64,000 bases of DNA from Escherichia coli. Lineage in GTDB: Bacteria > Pseudomonadota > Gammaproteobacteria > Enterobacterales > Enterobacteriaceae. The notes beneath the pieces are model-generated. The model saw only the letters and a program-made list of their open reading frames with translations. It ran no database searches and was not told the DNA's origin. The stretch lies in NCBI RefSeq assembly GCF_041886205.1, contig NZ_CP169029.1, one strand, 5' to 3'. A program made the translations under genes and the position numbers. Positions 35,560 through 44,790 of this stretch are shown in pieces (position 1 is the stretch's first letter; each line of letters opens with the position of its first letter).

Positions 35560-35653
35560 TTAATTCGTAAAACGTGCTACCGATCACATTAAGAATTCTC
35601 AGCATAGTTGAATTTTAGGGAAGTAACCTCGGGCGATCGCCCAGTTCAGCACA

Positions 35654-36562
35654 CTAATTCTGCTGTAAAAAGTGCAGAAACTGACTTAAAGCATAAGAAG
35701 GCGTTTCGTTATTGCGCCAGAACACACCGACGCTGCCTTTCTGTTCTATCTTTGGCAGGTTGAGGATCACCAGTTGTCCCTGGCTGGCATAACGTTGCGC
35801 CAGGCGTAATGACAAAATAGAGATCATATCGCTGCTTTGTAACAGGTTGGTACTGACGTTCATCGACGCCGACTCAATCGTGTTTTCTGGCAGCATCACG
35901 CCGTGGTCTACCAGCGCATTATCAATGCTGATGCGGATGGGGGTACCTGTCGGCCAGACTATCCACCGCCAGTTAGCAAGATCATTCCAGCTGAGGGTGG
36001 CGTATTTCGCCAGTGGATGCTCAGGACGGGCGACAAAACACACCGGCTCGGTGTAGAGCACGCGATAATTCAGCGGCAGCTGCAACGCGCGACCGCCAAT
36101 TCGCCCAACCACCACATCGACAGAACCTGCCAACAGATCTTGCAGCAATGGGGTCATCACCTTCTCTTCGATATTCAGGTGTAGAGTTGGCATCTCCTTG
36201 AGCAAATGCAAAATCGCCTGGGATACGCAGTCAGTGGCGACGGGAGAACAGCCAATTTTCAGACTGCCGACCAGACCACCTTGTTTAAAACGGGCCAGTT
36301 CATGTTGCGAGCGCTCCATGTCATTGATTAACCGTTGGGCATGTTGCAATAACAATTTGCCGCCTTCAGTAGGACGAAGTCCTTTGCTGTGCCGCTCAAA
36401 AAGTGTGAGTCCGATCTCATCTTCCAGATGTGACAACCATTTCGAAAGCGCGGGTTGGGTGATATTCATCATCCGTGCGACATGGGTCAGATTACCCTGT
36501 TCACCCAGCGCCACCAGCATTTGCAGGTGATGAAGCTTTAGTTTCTGCGCCCAGTTTGCCAT
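35654..36562 (-). CDS. LysR-family regulator of the gentisate cluster (MhbR-like)
   Basis: 302-aa ORF with N-terminal LysR HTH (LHHLQMLVALGEQGNLTHVARMMNITQPALSKWL); divergent from the catabolic operon. Confidence 0.8.
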   Translation of the reverse strand: MANWAQKLKLHHLQMLVALGEQGNLTHVARMMNITQPALSKWLSHLEDEIGLTLFERHSKGLRPTEGGKLLLQHAQRLINDMERSQHELARFKQGGLVGSLKIGCSPVATDCVSQAILHLLKEMPTLHLNIEEKVMTPLLQDLLAGSVDVVVGRIGGRALQLPLNYRVLYTEPVCFVARPEHPLAKYATLSWNDLANWRWIVWPTGTPIRISIDNALVDHGVMLPENTIESASMNVSTNLLQSSDMISILSLRLAQRYASQGQLVILNLPKIEQKGSVGVFWRNNETPSYALSQFLHFLQQN

Positions 36563-36688
36563 TTGCCATAACCTTCAGGTTATCTCTCTGCTCGAAATGC
36601 CATTGTACATTTCATCTCTTTAATCACAATATCGCAACATACACAAAACAAAAGAAACATCTACCTTACCTGCACTGAGGCATTTACT

Positions 36689-38047
36689 ATGACTCAACGA
36701 CGTGATCTACAAGCACTGATCGATGCCGCTCCGGTCGGCAAGATGCAGTGGCGCGTTATCATCTGCTGTTTTCTGGTGGTAATGCTCGATGGTTTTGACA
36801 CCGCGGCTATCGGCTTTATCGCCCCTGATATTCGCACTCACTGGCAACTCACCGCAGGCGATCTCGCCCCGCTTTTTGGCGCGGGTCTGCTGGGGTTAAC
36901 CGCAGGCGCACTGCTTTGTGGCCCGTTGTCCGATCGCTTTGGTCGCAAACGGGTGATTGAGCTGTGTGTCTTTTTGTTTGGCGCGTTAAGCCTTGCCTCG
37001 GCTTTCTCACCGGATCTGCAAACGCTGGTATTCCTGCGTTTCCTAACCGGCCTTGGGCTGGGTGGCGCGATGCCAAACACCATCACCATAACCTCGGAAT
37101 ATCTGCCTGCCCGCCGCCGCGGCGCGCTGGTGACGCTGATGTTTTGCGGCTTTACGCTGGGTTCGGCGTTTGGCGGGATTGTTAGCGCGCAGCTGGTGCC
37201 GGTGATTGGCTGGCACGGCATTCTGGTGTTGGGGGGCGTGTTACCGCTGATGCTGTTTGTCGCACTGCTGGTAGTTCTGCCGGAATCGCCACGCTGGCAG
37301 GTGCGCCGCCAGCTACCGCAGGCGGTGATTGCGAAAACCGTCAGCGCCATCACCCGCGAGCGTTATGTCGATACCCACTTTTATCTCATTGAATCAGCCT
37401 CCGTTACAAAAGGCAGCATTCGTCAACTGTTTATGGGACGTCAGTTACCCATCACGTTGATGCTGTGGGTAGTGTTCTTTATGAGCCTGCTGATTATTTA
37501 CCTGCTCTCAAGCTGGATGCCGACGCTACTGAACCATCGCGGCATCGACCTGCAACACGCGTCCTGGGTCACCGCCGCGTTCCAGATTGGTGGTACGTTA
37601 GGCGCGCTGGCGCTGGGTGTGCTGATGGATAAGTTCAATCCTTTCCGCGTACTGGCACTGAGCTATGCCATAGGCGCTGTATGCATCGTGATGATTGGCT
37701 TAAGCCAGGACGGATTATGGCTGATGGCGCTGGCGATTTTCGGCACCGGCATTGGTATTAGCGGATCGCAGGTGGGGCTGAATGCGCTGACCGCCACACT
37801 TTATCCAACACAAAGTCGCGCCACGGGCGTGAGTTGGTCAAACGCCGTGGGTCGCTGCGGTGCGATTGTTGGCTCGCTTTCTGGCGGCGTGATGATGGCG
37901 ATGAATTTCTCTTTCGACACCCTGTTTTTCATTATCGCTGTGCCCGCGGCGATCAGTGCGGTGATGTTAGCCTTGCTGATTACCGTGGTTCGCCAGTCGA
38001 CCTCTGTCCCTGACTCACTGCCTCGCGCAGGCGTTGTGAACGAATAA
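36689..38047 (+). CDS. MFS aromatic-acid:H+ symporter (3-hydroxybenzoate/gentisate transporter, MhbT-like)
   Basis: 452-aa 12-TM-type ORF with MFS motifs ([11 protein letters not shown]), placed first in the gentisate operon. Confidence 0.8.
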
Positions 38048-38058
38048 GGAGCATCCTA

Positions 38059-39087
38059 ATGACTGATAACAATCAAAATAGCCGCGAACAATTTTATCAG
38101 CACATTTCCGGGCAAAACCTGACCCCGCTGTGGGAGTCACTACACCATCTGGTGCCGAAAACGCCCAACGCTAACTGTGTGCCAGCGTACTGGAATTATC
38201 AGGAGATCCGCCCGCTGCTGCTGGAGAGCGGCAGCCTGATTGGCGCGAAAGAGGCGGTGCGCCGCGTGCTGGTGCTGGAAAACCCGGCGCTGCGCGGGCA
38301 GTCTTCCATCACCGCGACTTTATATGCCGGTTTGCAACTGATCATGCCGGGCGAAGTGGCACCGAGTCATCGCCATAACCAGTCGGCGCTGCGTTTTATT
38401 GTTGAAGGCAAAGGGGCATTTACCGCCGTTGACGGCGAACGCACGCCAATGAATGAGGGCGATTTTATCCTCACTCCGCAGTGGCGCTGGCACGATCACG
38501 GTAACCCTGGCGACGAACCAGTTATCTGGCTCGATGGGCTGGATCTGCCATTAGTGAATACTCTGGGCTGCGGTTTTGCCGAAGATTACCCGGAAGAGCA
38601 ACAACCGGTAACGCGTAAAGAGGGCGATTATCTGCCGCGTTACGCTGCCAATATGTTGCCGCTGCGCCATCAGACCGGGAACTCCTCACCCATCTTTAAC
38701 TACCGTTATGACCGCAGCCGCGAAGTGCTGCACGATTTAACCCGCCTGGGCGATGCCGATGAGTGGGATGGCTACAAAATGCGCTACGTCAACCCGGTCA
38801 CCGGTGGCTATCCGATGCCGTCGATGGGCGCTTTCCTGCAACTGCTGCCGAAAGGGTTCGCCTCCCGCGTGGCGCGTACCACTGACAGCACCATCTATCA
38901 CGTGGTGGAAGGCGGCGGGCAGGTCACCATCGGCAATGAAACCTTCAGCTTTAGTGCAAAAGATATCTTCGTGGTGCCGACCTGGCACGGCGTGTCGTTC
39001 CAGACCACGCAAGATACCGTGTTATTCAGTTTTTCGGACAGACCGGTACAAGAAGCCCTGGGACTGTTCCGCGAAGCGCGTTATTAA
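38059..39087 (+). CDS. Gentisate 1,2-dioxygenase (bicupin)
   Basis: 342-aa ORF with two cupin modules and His-rich metal site ([12 protein letters not shown]…WRWHDHGN). Confidence 0.85.
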
Positions 39088-39102
39088 TTTGGGAGAGAAA
39101 AA

Positions 39103-39804
39103 ATGACTCAATACGTATTCGAACCACAAGCGCCCGTTACCGTACCGGTTGTTGGCAGTGATGAACAATTCCCCGTGCGCCGCGTGTACTGCGTCGGACG
39201 TAACTATGCCGCCCACGCCCGCGAAATGGGCTTTGATCCGGATCGTGAACCGCCATTCTTCTTCTGCAAACCGGCGGATGCCGTTGTTCCGGTTGCCGCT
39301 GGCGAAACGCTGGCGCTGCCGTATCCGGCGCAGACCGATAACTACCATTACGAAATTGAACTGGTGGTGGCGATTGGTAAAAAGGGCAGTGATATCCCGC
39401 TGGAAAACGCCCATGAATATGTCTGGGGTTATGCCACGGGTCTTGATATGACTCGTCGTGACCGTCAAATGGAAATGCGCCAGATGGGCCGCCCGTGGGA
39501 AATCGGCAAAGCGTTTGATCTCTCGGCCCCCATCGCGCCGCTGCACAAAGCCAGCGAAACCGGCGGTATTGATAACGCGCCAATCTGGTTACAGGTTAAC
39601 GGCGAAGATCATCAGCGCAGCGATATTCGCCATCTCATCTGGTCAGTGAATGAAACCATCAGCTACCTGTCCGGCTTTTTTGAACTGCAACCGGGCGATC
39701 TGATCTTCACCGGTACGCCGGAAGGGGTTGGCCCGGTAGTGAAAGGTGATGTGATCACGGGCAACGTCGAGGGCTTAACGCCTATCGCGGTGAAAATTGT
39801 CTGA
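39103..39804 (+). CDS. Fumarylpyruvate hydrolase (FAH family)
   Basis: 233-aa ORF with fumarylacetoacetate-hydrolase fold motifs ([15 protein letters not shown]); sits between the dioxygenase and the isomerase. Confidence 0.8.
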
Positions 39805-39809
39805 GGTGC

Positions 39810-40457
39810 ATGATGAAGCTGTACAGTTTTTTTAATAGTTCAGCATCGTACCGGGTACGCATTGCGCTGGCGCTGAAAGGCATTGATTACCATACCGAAG
39901 GGGTGAATATCCGCATTGGTCAGCAAAATGAACTGGCCTACCGGCGGATGAATCCGGTCGGGCTGGTGCCGACGCTGCTGACTGACGAGGGCGAATCACT
40001 TGGACAATCGCTGGCGATTATTGACTGGCTGGATCGTCACTACCCCCAAGTTCCGCTGATGCCGCAGGAAGAGCCGGCCCGCAACAAGGTGCTGGAAATT
40101 GTCTATGCCATCGCCTGTGATATTCATCCACTGAATAACCTGCGCGTGCTGCGCTACCTGACCGAAGAGCTGAACGTCAGTGAAGAAGATAAAAAACGCT
40201 GGTATGCGCACTGGATCCAGCAAGGGTTAAGCGCGGTGGAACAGCTGTTGCGCCAGAGCCAGTCGGGGCAATTTTGCGTGGGCGAGACGCCGACGCTGGC
40301 AGATTGCTGCCTTGTCCCGCAGTGGGCGAACGCGCTACGCATGAACTGCGATCTGAGTGGGTATCCGCGCTGCAAAGCGGTGTACGACGCCTGCACGCAG
40401 CTGCCAGCGTTCATTGCCGCAGCGCCAGAAAATCAACAAGATAAAATTTCAGCCTGA
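39810..40457 (+). CDS. Maleylpyruvate isomerase (GST zeta-class / maleylacetoacetate isomerase-like)
   Basis: 215-aa ORF with GST N-terminal thioredoxin-like fold (MKLYSFFNSSASYRVRIALALKGIDY). Confidence 0.8.
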   Translation: MMKLYSFFNSSASYRVRIALALKGIDYHTEGVNIRIGQQNELAYRRMNPVGLVPTLLTDEGESLGQSLAIIDWLDRHYPQVPLMPQEEPARNKVLEIVYAIACDIHPLNNLRVLRYLTEELNVSEEDKKRWYAHWIQQGLSAVEQLLRQSQSGQFCVGETPTLADCCLVPQWANALRMNCDLSGYPRCKAVYDACTQLPAFIAAAPENQQDKISA

Positions 40458-40468
40458 CCAGGAGAACC

Positions 40469-41665
40469 ATGATGACTAAAGTGACACGCGCAGTAATTGT
40501 GGGAGGCGGGATCGGCGGTGCGGCAACTGCGCTGTCACTGGCCCGCCAGGGGATCAAAGTGGTGCTGCTGGAAAAGGCGCATGAGATTGGTGAGATTGGC
40601 GCGGGCATCCAGTTGGGGCCAAATGCGTTTTCGGCGTTGGATAGCCTCGGCGTCGGCGAAATCGCCCGCCAGCGCGCGGTATTCACCGATCACATCACCA
40701 TGATGGATGCGGTAAACGCCGAAGAAGTGGTGCGCATTGAAACCGGTCAGGCCTTTCGCGACCATTTCGGCGGCCCTTACGCGGTGATCCACCGGGTTGA
40801 TATTCACGCCTCGGTGTGGGAAGCGGTACTGACGCATCCGGACGTGGAATATCACACCTCCACCAACGTCGTGGATATTCGTGAGACGGAAGACGATGTC
40901 ACCGTGTTTGACGATCGCGGCAATAGCTGGAGCGGCGATATTCTGATTGGCTGTGATGGCGTGAAGTCAGTGGTGCGCCAGAGCTTATTAGGCGATGCGC
41001 CGCGCGTCACCGGACATGTGGTCTACCGCGCAGTTATCGATTGTGCGGATATGCCGGAAGATTTGCGCATTAACGCACCAGTACTGTGGGCGGGGCCGCA
41101 CTGTCACCTGGTGCATTACCCTTTGCGCGGCGGCAAGCAGTATAACCTGGTGGTGACATTCCACAGCCGCCAGCAGGAAGAGTGGGGCGTGAAGGATGGC
41201 AGTAAAGAGGAAGTGCTCTCTTACTTTGAAGGGATTCACCCCCGTCCTCGCCAGATGCTGGATAAACCGACCTCCTGGCGACGCTGGTCAACCGCCGACC
41301 GTGAACCGGTAGCGAAGTGGGGAACGAAGCGCATTACGCTGGTTGGCGATGCGGCCCATCCGGTGGCGCAGTATATGGCGCAGGGTGCCTGTATGGCGTT
41401 GGAAGACGCGGTAACGCTCGGCAAGGCGCTGGCGCAGTGTGAGGGGGATGCGGCGCAAGCCTTTGCACTGTATGAGTCGGTACGTATTCCGCGCACCGCG
41501 CGCATCGTCTGGTCGACCCGTGAAATGGGGCGGGTTTATCACGCCGCAGGAGTAGAGCGCCAGGTACGAAACCTGCTGTGGAAAGGTAAATCGCAGGCAG
41601 AGTTTTACCGCGGCATGGAGTGGCTGTACGGCTGGAAAGAAGATAACTGTCTGCAACCACGCTGA
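40469..41665 (+). CDS. FAD-dependent 3-hydroxybenzoate 6-hydroxylase (salicylate hydroxylase-like monooxygenase)
   Basis: 398-aa ORF with N-terminal GxGxxG motif ([14 protein letters not shown]) and C-terminal FAD-binding motif ([22 protein letters not shown]). Confidence 0.8.
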
Positions 41666-41726
41666 GTACTTTAATCCGCTGACCGGAGGCGCTAACATAG
41701 CGCCTCATTTTTTTGCGGGTGATGAT

Positions 41727-42674
41727 ATGCGTGTGTTACTGGCGCCGATGGAGGGTGTGCTTGACTCTCTGGTGCGTGAATTGCTGACCGAAGTTAACGA
41801 CTACGATCTGTGCATCACCGAGTTTGTCCGCGTGGTGGATCAACTGCTGCCGGTAAAAGTCTTTCATCGCATTTGCCCTGAGCTACAAAACGCCAGCCGG
41901 ACACCATCCGGTACGCGGGTGCGCGTTCAGTTGTTAGGTCAGTTCCCACAATGGCTGGCAGAGAACGCCGCCCGTGCGGTGGAATTAGGTTCCTGGGGCG
42001 TGGATCTCAATTGCGGCTGCCCGTCGAAAACGGTTAACGGCAGCGGCGGCGGGGCGACGTTACTCAAAGATCCTGAACTCATCTACCAGGGTGCAAAAGC
42101 GATGCGTGAAGCTGTACCGGCGCATTTGCCCGTCAGCGTGAAAGTGCGTCTGGGCTGGGACAGCGGTGAGAAGAAATTTGAAATCGCCGATGCGGTTCAA
42201 CAGGCTGGTGCTACGGAGCTGGTGGTGCATGGACGGACAAAAGAGCAGGGTTACCGCGCGGAGCATATTGACTGGCAGGCGATTGGCGAGATTCGCCAGC
42301 GGCTGAATATTCCGGTGATTGCCAACGGTGAAATCTGGGACTGGCAGAGTGCGCAACAATGCATGGCGATCAGCGGCTGCGACGCAGTGATGATTGGTCG
42401 CGGGGCGCTCAATATTCCCAACCTGAGCCGGGTGGTAAAATATAACGAACCGCGAATGCCGTGGCCGGAGGTGGTTGCTTTGCTGCAAAAATATACCCGT
42501 CTGGAAAAGCAGGGCGATACCGGGTTATATCACGTAGCGCGGATTAAACAGTGGTTGAGTTATTTGCGTAAAGAATACGATGAAGCAACAGAATTATTTC
42601 AGCATGTTCGGGTGTTGAATAATCCCCCTGATATTGCAAGGGCTATTCAGGCAATTGATATCGAGAAACTCTAA
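41727..42674 (+). CDS. dusC: tRNA-dihydrouridine(16) synthase
   Basis: 315-aa ORF starting [23 protein letters not shown] with a Dus TIM-barrel and catalytic Cys region (DLNCGCP). Confidence 0.9.
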
Positions 42675-42715
42675 TAAACCATAGTGATGTTTTTTGACAA
42701 TGTGTTAGCTCTTTA

Positions 42716-42960
42716 TCAATAGGCCGCACGGTTGTTTGGTGGCGTCAAAATTGCCGAGGCGTTCCCTGAAGGCCGGGGCAGCCCACATGGATGTGGGCTG
42801 AGGGCGCGTTTTACAGGGATGTTACCTCGCGCCCGACCCGGTAGCCGTAAGGGATAAGCCGAGGGCACCGCGCAGCGGCGATTTTGTTCGCCAGAGCCCG
42901 GGGGTGCAGGGGGCGGCGGCGATTGGCCGCCCCCTGCGCGCTCCTTGCGCCAGTGATTAT
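42716..42960. repeat. GC-rich intergenic block with several perfect stem-loops; unclassified structured element
   Basis: Hairpins gcagggggcggc-ggcgattg-gccgccccctgc (42906-42936), gcccacat-gg-atgtgggc, and gggcgcg…cgcgccc; it lacks the ccggat / atccgg REP core. Confidence 0.3.
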
Positions 42961-43045
42961 ATGAAGCAATGCACATGACAGGAGCGCAACAGGATGAGAG
43001 ACTGAAATATTCTCGTTATTTTCGGACCTGATGACATTAATTAAT

Positions 43046-43130
43046 TTTAAAATATCATCTTAAATACGCCAGTCACCACCAGTAGCCCAATCAGGAAAAT
43101 AATCAATACAGCCCAGAGTATAATTTTCAT
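43046..43130 (-). CDS. yohP: Small membrane protein YohP (27 aa)
   Basis: Hand translation gives MKIILWAVLIIFLIGLLVVTGVFKMIF with an AAGGAA Shine-Dalgarno 5 nt upstream; it is below the ORF-track size cutoff. Confidence 0.65.
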
Positions 43131-43353
43131 TGGCGTTCCTTTATTTGTGAGTGCTGAATAAGTATAGGAAAAAACGAAGCCCTTTGCCGTTATCCATAAA
43201 CGATTAAGATAAATCGGAAGATATCATTCACTTAGTGTATATTTTTCTGGATATGTCGTTTTATTGCTACTGATGTATTGCCACGCGAAACTAAAAAATA
43301 TATCGCAACACACGGTAATCTCCGCGCACCTTTTCTTACCTGATTATTCCCCC

Positions 43354-44790
43354 ATGAATCGTGATTCCTTTTATCCCGCCATCGCCTGTTTTCCGCTGTT
43401 ACTGATGCTGGCCGGGTGTGCGCCTATGCATGAAACCCGCCAGGCGTTAAGCCAGCAAACGCCCGCTGCACAAGTTGACACCGCATTACCCACGGCGCTG
43501 AAAAATGGTTGGCCAGACAGCCAATGGTGGCTGGAGTATCACGATAATCAGCTCACTTCATTAATTAACAATGCACTACAGAACGCACCGGATATGCAGG
43601 TGGCTGAACAGCGCATTCAGCTAGCTGAAGCCCAGGCGAAGGCAGTTGCCACTCAGGATGGTCCGCAGATCGACTTTTCGGCGGATATGGAGCGGCAAAA
43701 AATGTCGGCAGAAGGCTTAATGGGGCCGTTTGCTCTGAACGATCCGGCCGCAGGTACGACCGGCCCGTGGTACACCAACGGTACTTTTGGCTTAACGGCG
43801 GGCTGGCATCTCGATATCTGGGGAAAGAATCGGGCGGAGGTTACTGCCCGCCTGGGTACGGTTAAAGCACGGGCGGCGGAACGCGAGCAAACCCGCCAAT
43901 TGCTGGCTGGCAGCGTAGCCCGCCTGTACTGGGAGTGGCAAACCCAGGCGGCGTTAAACACGGTCTTGCAGCAAATAGAAAAAGAGCAGAACACCATTAT
44001 CGCGACCGATCGCCAGCTATATCAGAACGGGATTACTTCTTCAGTTGAAGGTGTGGAAACCGATATTAATGCCAGCAAAACCCGGCAGCAGCTCAACGAT
44101 GTCGCGGGGAAAATGAAAATTATTGAGGCACGGTTAAGCGCACTTACAAATCACCAGACAAAGTCATTGAAGCTTAAACCGGTCGCGTTGCCGAAAGTGG
44201 CAAGCCAGCTTCCTGATGAACTGGGGTACTCCTTACTGGCCCGGCGGGCAGATTTGCAGGCGGCGCACTGGTACGTTGAGTCATCGCTAAGCACCATTGA
44301 TGCGGCAAAAGCGGCATTTTATCCTGACATCAACCTGATGGCCTTCCTGCAACAGGATGCGTTGCACTTAAGCGATCTGTTCCGTCATTCCGCGCAGCAA
44401 ATGGGCGTTACGGCAGGCCTGACGCTACCCATTTTCGATAGTGGTCGTCTTAACGCCAATCTCGATATCGCAAAAGCCGAAAGCAACTTGTCTATCGCCA
44501 GCTACAACAAAGCGGTGGTTGAAGCGGTGAATGACGTGGCGCGGGCAGCCAGTCAGGTTCAGACACTTGCGGAGAAAAACCAGCATCAGGCGCAAATTGA
44601 GCGCGATGCCTTGCGTGTGGTAGGTCTTGCGCAGGCGCGCTTTAACGCGGGCATCATTGCTGGTTCCCGCGTCAGCGAAGCCAGAATCCCCGCGCTGCGT
44701 GAGCGGGCCAATGGCCTGTTATTGCAAGGGCAGTGGCTGGATGCCTCCATTCAACTCACTGGTGTGTTGGGCGGGGGTTACAAACGCTGA
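43354..44790 (+). CDS. mdtQ: Outer membrane efflux lipoprotein, NodT/OMF family (MdtQ/YohG), apparently intact
   Basis: 478 aa from ATG 43354 (MNRDSFYPAIACFPLLLMLAGC lipoprotein signal with lipobox Cys); one uninterrupted reading frame. Confidence 0.8.
   Translation: MNRDSFYPAIACFPLLLMLAGCAPMHETRQALSQQTPAAQVDTALPTALKNGWPDSQWWLEYHDNQLTSLINNALQNAPDMQVAEQRIQLAEAQAKAVATQDGPQIDFSADMERQKMSAEGLMGPFALNDPAAGTTGPWYTNGTFGLTAGWHLDIWGKNRAEVTARLGTVKARAAEREQTRQLLAGSVARLYWEWQTQAALNTVLQQIEKEQNTIIATDRQLYQNGITSSVEGVETDINASKTRQQLNDVAGKMKIIEARLSALTNHQTKSLKLKPVALPKVASQLPDELGYSLLARRADLQAAHWYVESSLSTIDAAKAAFYPDINLMAFLQQDALHLSDLFRHSAQQMGVTAGLTLPIFDSGRLNANLDIAKAESNLSIASYNKAVVEAVNDVARAASQVQTLAEKNQHQAQIERDALRVVGLAQARFNAGIIAGSRVSEARIPALRERANGLLLQGQWLDASIQLTGVLGGGYKR

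Follow-up and report, generated by a model that had tools for sequence, protein, structure and literature searches.

The 27-codon gene yohP between dusC and mdtQ of Escherichia coli: identity, conservation and proposed mode of action of its small membrane protein

YohP of Escherichia coli K-12 (b4679; WP_000691708.1), the closest described counterpart of the gene analyzed here, has been annotated since the small-protein surveys of 2008, according to statements in two later studies (PMC12719787, PMC7549839). It is recovered with inner-membrane vesicles, for the most part as an SDS-resistant dimer, and dimerization requires G15 (PMC7549839); its topology is described in the literature as mainly N-out/C-in. 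The Salmonella ortholog, STnc1330/YohP, was first catalogued as a non-coding sRNA and is a sigma-S-dependent gene induced in stationary phase (PMC5437024). YncL, YkgR, AzuC and YshB of E. coli resemble YohP in being shorter than 50 aa, in consisting of a single helix and in being induced by stress, and YncL also causes depolarization and nucleoid condensation (PMC12542507); however, none of the four is related to YohP in sequence, and they respond to other inducers, heat shock in the case of YncL (PMC12719787). The membrane-active peptides TisB and magainin-2 share with YohP a small helix with cationic flanks that lowers the membrane potential (PMC12719787). In contrast to both, the effect of YohP is sublethal and no antitoxin RNA is known or evident, and YohP interferes with the oligomerization of magainin-2 rather than mimicking its killing activity (PMC12542507).

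The window analyzed here is a 64,000-nt stretch of Escherichia coli DNA (GCF_041886205.1, contig NZ_CP169029.1), in which a first-pass annotation had proposed an additional minus-strand gene for a 27-aa membrane peptide. The features of the locus are the following.

41727..42674, plus strand: dusC, tRNA dihydrouridine(16) synthase; convergent neighbor of yohP and anchor for ortholog retrieval
42736..43006, no strand assigned: GC-rich repeated element that makes up most of the yohP 3' flank and of the spacer between dusC and yohP (described by its fold, hairpin, repeat count and orientation among strains)
43047..43130, minus strand: yohP coding sequence, 27 codons plus TAA stop (sequence, translation, family HMMs, K-12 annotation and ortholog conservation)
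43136..43141, minus strand: Shine-Dalgarno sequence AAGGAA, 5 nt 5' of the yohP ATG (sequence reading)
43159..43167, minus strand: putative -10 element CTATACTTA, with TATACT at 43166-43161 and the C at -13 at 43167
43354..44790, plus strand: mdtQ, outer-membrane efflux channel of the TolC family; divergent neighbor, intact in the window (478 aa), with a frameshift in K-12

The minus-strand ORF extends from an ATG at 43130-43128 to a TAA at 43049-43047, and its product, as translated from the window, is MKIILWAVLIIFLIGLLVVTGVFKMIF, exactly the peptide that had been translated by hand. The ribosome-binding site predicted along with it is present at 43141-43136, 5 nt before the ATG, and the placement of the ORF between the GC-rich element and mdtQ is also borne out. 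Of the coordinates originally given, 43046-43130, the upper end stands, whereas the lower end is one base too low (85 bases for an ORF of 84). The ORF is recovered with a minimum length of 20 aa, below the default of 60 aa, and it is missing from the ORF track, as had been suspected, because 27 aa falls under this length filter.

Several independent comparisons identify the product as YohP. The peptide matches the NCBIfam equivalog NF011345, 'small membrane protein YohP', over its full length (residues 1-27 of 27) with 67.3 bits (curated cut-off 58 bits) and the Pfam family PF25659, 'YohP', with 50.6 bits (gathering score 27). Protein and coding DNA are both 100% identical to those of K-12 YohP, and a large protein collection lists the exact peptide as YohP on at least 1000 contigs. 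A 721-bp query around the gene matches 5425 of the 5426 complete E. coli genomes, and the feature is annotated in RefSeq as 'yohP: small membrane protein YohP'; in E. coli strain LHM10-1 (NZ_CP037903.1), an IS1A insertion splits this region in two. The gene order in K-12 MG1655 is yohJ, dusC (plus), yohP (minus), mdtQ (plus, frameshifted) and yohF. The dusC-yohP-mdtQ arrangement, with yohP convergent to dusC, is found in 16 loci of Escherichia, Citrobacter and Salmonella and has been stated for E. coli (PMC12719787). The name yohP given in the first-pass annotation is thus upheld by the identity to the K-12 protein, by family scores above the cut-offs and by the dusC-mdtQ context. That the ORF at 43047..43130 is yohP is virtually certain; the gene is already known, and nothing argues against its identity, frequent disruption of the frame in genomes that are otherwise intact not being seen.

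The K-12 locus has the same gene with the same Shine-Dalgarno sequence, -10 element and neighbors, and differs from the one described here in two respects, namely the frameshift of mdtQ in K-12 and the presence, in the window, of a 6-kb cluster upstream of dusC. The K-12 mdtQ lacks one A of an A-run at about window position 43501, hence the annotated frameshift, and the two alleles differ by seven more substitutions. The cluster, about 6.1 kb between yohJ and dusC (35596-41668), is absent from K-12 and represents a 3-hydroxybenzoate/gentisate catabolic cluster that encodes a LysR regulator, mhbT, 3-hydroxybenzoate 6-monooxygenase, gtdA and a protein of the fumarylacetoacetate hydrolase family. 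It is present in full length in 611 of the 5426 complete E. coli genomes. The Salmonella locus is likewise similar, with a 27-aa ortholog that is 93% identical, a CCTATACT -10 element and the same dusC/mdtQ context, but its 3' flank is unrelated.

YohP is extremely hydrophobic. Its GRAVY value of 2.47 is by far the highest in the set of 252 ORFs with an ATG start and a length of 20-40 aa that the window contains, the second being 1.88. Two lysines, K2 and K24, flank the hydrophobic core, and two glycines, G15 and G21, lie inside it. The coding strand contains 41% U and 11% C, compared to 24% and 27%, respectively, for that strand of the window as a whole. For the evolutionary analysis, 80 dusC-anchored loci, one genome per species, were scanned blind for YohP-like ORFs. 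Such ORFs were detected in 20 loci, from Escherichia, Citrobacter, a Raoultella-labelled MAG, Salmonella, Franconibacter and Rahnella, and all 20 have 27 codons, start with ATG, lie on the strand opposite to dusC and contain no indels. The seven distinct ortholog peptides share the invariant pattern MK..LW....IF..GLL..TGVFK.IF, which includes K2, G15, G21 and K24. In the aligned orthologs, a purine-rich Shine-Dalgarno sequence (AAGGAA, AGGGAA or AAGGAG) always occupies the same position. Compared to the yohP of the window, pN/pS is 0.05-0.24, and the variable columns in the 16 distinct coding sequences are distributed over the three codon positions as 14/3/24. The similarity detected by blastn is limited to 43047-43139 in Citrobacter and 43051-43132 in Salmonella, and therefore ends at the ORF boundaries. 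By these sequence comparisons, the reading frame is under purifying selection as a protein across Enterobacterales. Conservation of the frame in related genomes, on which the first-pass annotation had made its proposal depend, is accordingly found in five genera. Given the outlying hydropathy and this conservation of the frame under purifying selection, yohP is more than a chance ORF.

The same comparisons bear on the possibility that the transcript functions mainly as a regulatory sRNA, with the ORF being incidental, or as a dual-function RNA, a notion that originates from the initial listing of the Salmonella transcript among the non-coding sRNAs and from the observation that certain coding sRNAs, which may have two functions, are bound by Hfq (PMC5437024). 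Against this, the substitutions are of the protein type, with low pN/pS and variation mostly in third positions, and tagged YohP is abundant (PMC12719787, PMC5437024). There is no Rfam family for the yohP/STnc1330 transcript, no Rfam sRNA reaches the threshold at the yohP locus, and neither exceptional stability nor covariation speaks for the predicted RNA structure. Specifically, a two-stem fold of the coding region has been reported and is said to contribute to membrane targeting of the mRNA (PMC10066597). RNAfold reproduces both stems (nt 10-25 and nt 30-78), but the stability of the fold does not exceed that of dinucleotide shuffles (z = +1.11; 178 of 200 shuffles are at least as stable), and the 16 distinct coding sequences provide no convincing covariation, with helix 1 paired in 34% of the cells and two pairs changed on both sides compared to a shuffle mean of 2.0. 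The two-stem fold was therefore not retained as a special feature. A primarily regulatory role of the RNA appears exceedingly improbable, and yohP is best regarded as a protein-coding gene, whose RNA might conceivably have a second role.

The distribution of yohP is patchy. In the remaining 60 of the 80 loci, which include E. albertii, four Citrobacter, Klebsiella, Enterobacter and Pectobacterium, no recognizable yohP or remnant is found within 3 kb of dusC; hence yohP is either dispensable in many lineages or sited elsewhere in their genomes. In E. albertii (locus L007, 1087-1388) and in four Citrobacter loci (L009, L010, L012 and L019), dusC and mdtQ are adjacent, with no yohP ORF or remnant between them. 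The spacer in E. albertii is only about 300 bp long and contains a 79-bp remnant of the GC-rich element. Because these close relatives keep both neighbors without the gene itself, yohP has been lost, or was never gained, in some of them.

This pattern also weighs on the idea that YohP is an accessory or regulatory subunit of a larger membrane protein, in the manner of AcrZ, MgrB or MgtS, for example in an efflux system that uses MdtQ. Many characterized small membrane proteins act as such subunits (PMC12719787), and yohP and mdtQ are divergent neighbors in Escherichia, Citrobacter and Salmonella. However, mdtQ is found in 9 loci that lack yohP (E. albertii, several Citrobacter and Enterobacter-like genomes), and yohP in 4 loci that lack mdtQ (Franconibacter and Rahnella), and a functional link between the two genes was rejected on this co-occurrence across loci. 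Furthermore, mdtQ is a pseudogene in K-12, yet YohP is made and active there, and the two proteins belong to different membranes, YohP to the inner membrane and MdtQ to the outer membrane as a lipoprotein. No partner of YohP is reported in the five studies considered here (PMC12719787, PMC12542507, PMC7549839, PMC10066597, PMC5437024). A subunit function is thus unlikely. The MdtQ encoded in the window carries a lipoprotein-type signal that ends in LLAGC.

Upstream of yohP, a TATACT hexamer is located thirty bases 5' of the ATG, preceded by C and followed by TA. The corresponding sequence, CCTATACT, is kept at the same distance from yohP in Escherichia, Citrobacter and Salmonella. The CTATACT sequence, with C at -13, is the classical -10 element preferred by sigma-S. 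There is no good -35 element upstream of yohP, and a sigma-70 scan called no promoter on the minus strand in this region. Judged from the sequence, CTATACTTA is a putative sigma-S-type -10 element of yohP; if so, transcription would start near 43154, with a 5' UTR of approximately 24 nt. The conserved -10 element fits the published dependence on sigma-S in stationary phase: in Salmonella, stationary-phase cells contain large amounts of the yohP transcript and of the 3xFLAG-tagged protein, an rpoS mutant has hardly any of either, and canonical sigma-S -10 features are found in the promoters of the gene set to which yohP belongs (PMC5437024). In E. coli, YohP-SPA expressed from the native chromosomal promoter increases as cells pass from early into late stationary phase, and also in minimal medium and when oxygen is limiting, whereas the induction by SDS/EDTA and H2O2 that was reported earlier has not been reproduced (PMC12719787). 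Translation, the other point on which the first-pass annotation had staked the gene, is thus documented by SPA tagging of the chromosomal gene, with its native promoter, in E. coli (PMC12719787) and by the 3xFLAG tag in Salmonella (PMC5437024).

Two routes of YohP to the membrane have been described. The protein is too short to be recognized co-translationally and is therefore delivered after translation: it is recognized post-translationally by SRP and passed via FtsY to SecYEG or YidC (PMC7549839). In addition, yohP mRNA binds to the membrane whether or not it is translated, a route that makes insertion SRP-independent, and U-richness promotes such membrane binding of mRNAs (PMC10066597). 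The 41% U of the yohP coding strand agrees with this published effect. Production of YohP leads to sublethal depolarization, a phage-shock response, accumulation of (p)ppGpp, nucleoid condensation, lower protein synthesis and the above-mentioned interference with magainin-2, and deletion of yohP results in greater sensitivity to ciprofloxacin and oxidative stress (PMC12542507, PMC12719787). The authors caution that most of these phenotypes were obtained by producing YohP prematurely, in exponential phase, and that the deletion barely alters the proteome (PMC12719787).

Some of these effects are reminiscent of type I toxins, that is, pore-forming peptides under antisense RNA control with a role in persistence or addiction instead of a general stress response. 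The resemblance to TisB-type toxins includes the size, the single lysine-flanked helix, the depolarization, the nucleoid condensation and the reduced growth upon overproduction (PMC12542507, PMC12719787), and one sigma-70-like site on the plus strand, at 43031-43058, would drive transcription antisense to yohP. This site is at the chance level (1 found against 1.3 expected), and it is partly situated in a segment for which other strains and genera have different DNA; the supposed antisense promoter is accordingly best taken as a chance-level match in non-conserved DNA. The depolarization caused by YohP is sublethal, and native stationary-phase levels of the protein match the plasmid-driven levels (PMC12719787). 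Moreover, there is a single copy of yohP in the window, with no paralogs, and the family match is to the YohP equivalog, not to a toxin family. A tblastn search against plasmids and phages yielded no match, a weak negative because the low-complexity filter may mask so hydrophobic a query. Taken with its evidence on both sides, a toxin-antitoxin module is a very improbable interpretation of the locus.

The explanation that we prefer, and consider very likely overall, is that yohP is a monocistronic gene for a 27-residue inner-membrane protein with a single transmembrane helix that acts as proposed in the literature. As published, the native locus produces YohP, and its level goes up in stationary phase, in minimal medium and when oxygen is limiting, with transcription probably starting a few bases 3' of the conserved CTATACTTA element and producing a leader of about 24 nt. 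SRP and FtsY bring the finished protein to SecYEG or YidC; once SRP is inhibited by (p)ppGpp, YohP is reported to be made instead from membrane-bound yohP mRNA. Insertion is reported to partly dissipate the membrane potential, and this would lead to metabolic silencing. This last component, depolarization followed by silencing, is somewhat favored but held with distinctly less confidence than the scheme as a whole, a rating to be read beside the caveat that the functional data come mostly from premature, plasmid-driven production. The 3' end of the transcript is predicted to lie within or at the GC-rich hairpins of the dusC-yohP spacer.

These hairpins, including a perfect 12-bp GC stem in which 42906-42917 pairs with 42926-42937, account for the strong folding of the yohP 3' flank (z = -3.1); a terminator scan found no canonical intrinsic terminator downstream of yohP. 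The GC-rich element is a repeat, found at a median of 3 places in each E. coli genome. The whole spacer (42675-43046) is inverted in E. whittamii, E. coli E69 and Escherichia sp. E1V33, where the core is approximately 89-94% identical to that of the window and the short flanks have diverged. Furthermore, the co-linear match to the window starts at position 43045, by the yohP stop codon, in about 2000 of the 5426 E. coli genomes, O157:H7 and ST131 among them; this suggests that about a third of E. coli genomes carry the spacer in the opposite orientation; K-12 has the same orientation as the window. The 3' untranslated region of yohP could thus be conceived as a natural two-state polymorphism, with a spacer of about 270-375 bp and a junction a few bases from the stop codon, although we regard this as a long shot. 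If true, the orientation of the spacer could give lineage-specific termination, stability or membrane targeting of the yohP (and dusC) transcript.

Two weak RNA family matches were also observed in the spacer. A sub-threshold match to the TwoAYGGAY RNA (RF01731) at 42732-42883, on the plus strand, scores 30.9 bits, short of the gathering score of 43, with E = 0.004 in a search of 361 nt. Of its two hairpins, the first carries a perfect AUGGAU loop (GCCCACAUGGAUGUGGGC) and the other one AGGGAU; the match lies on the dusC strand, antisense to yohP; a literature search for this motif found no functional study. The other is a match to AgvB, the anti-GcvB sRNA, on the minus strand at 42964-43024, just 3' of yohP; with 22.9 bits it stays far under the gathering score of 56 (E = 0.03-0.08) and is most likely due to chance.

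Real genes of the size of yohP are hidden by length-filtered ORF tracks, and they can be reliably recovered by combining extreme hydropathy, a well-placed Shine-Dalgarno sequence and an island of conservation that matches the ORF boundaries. yohP itself is now a model for the insertion of very small membrane proteins and for stress tolerance in stationary phase.
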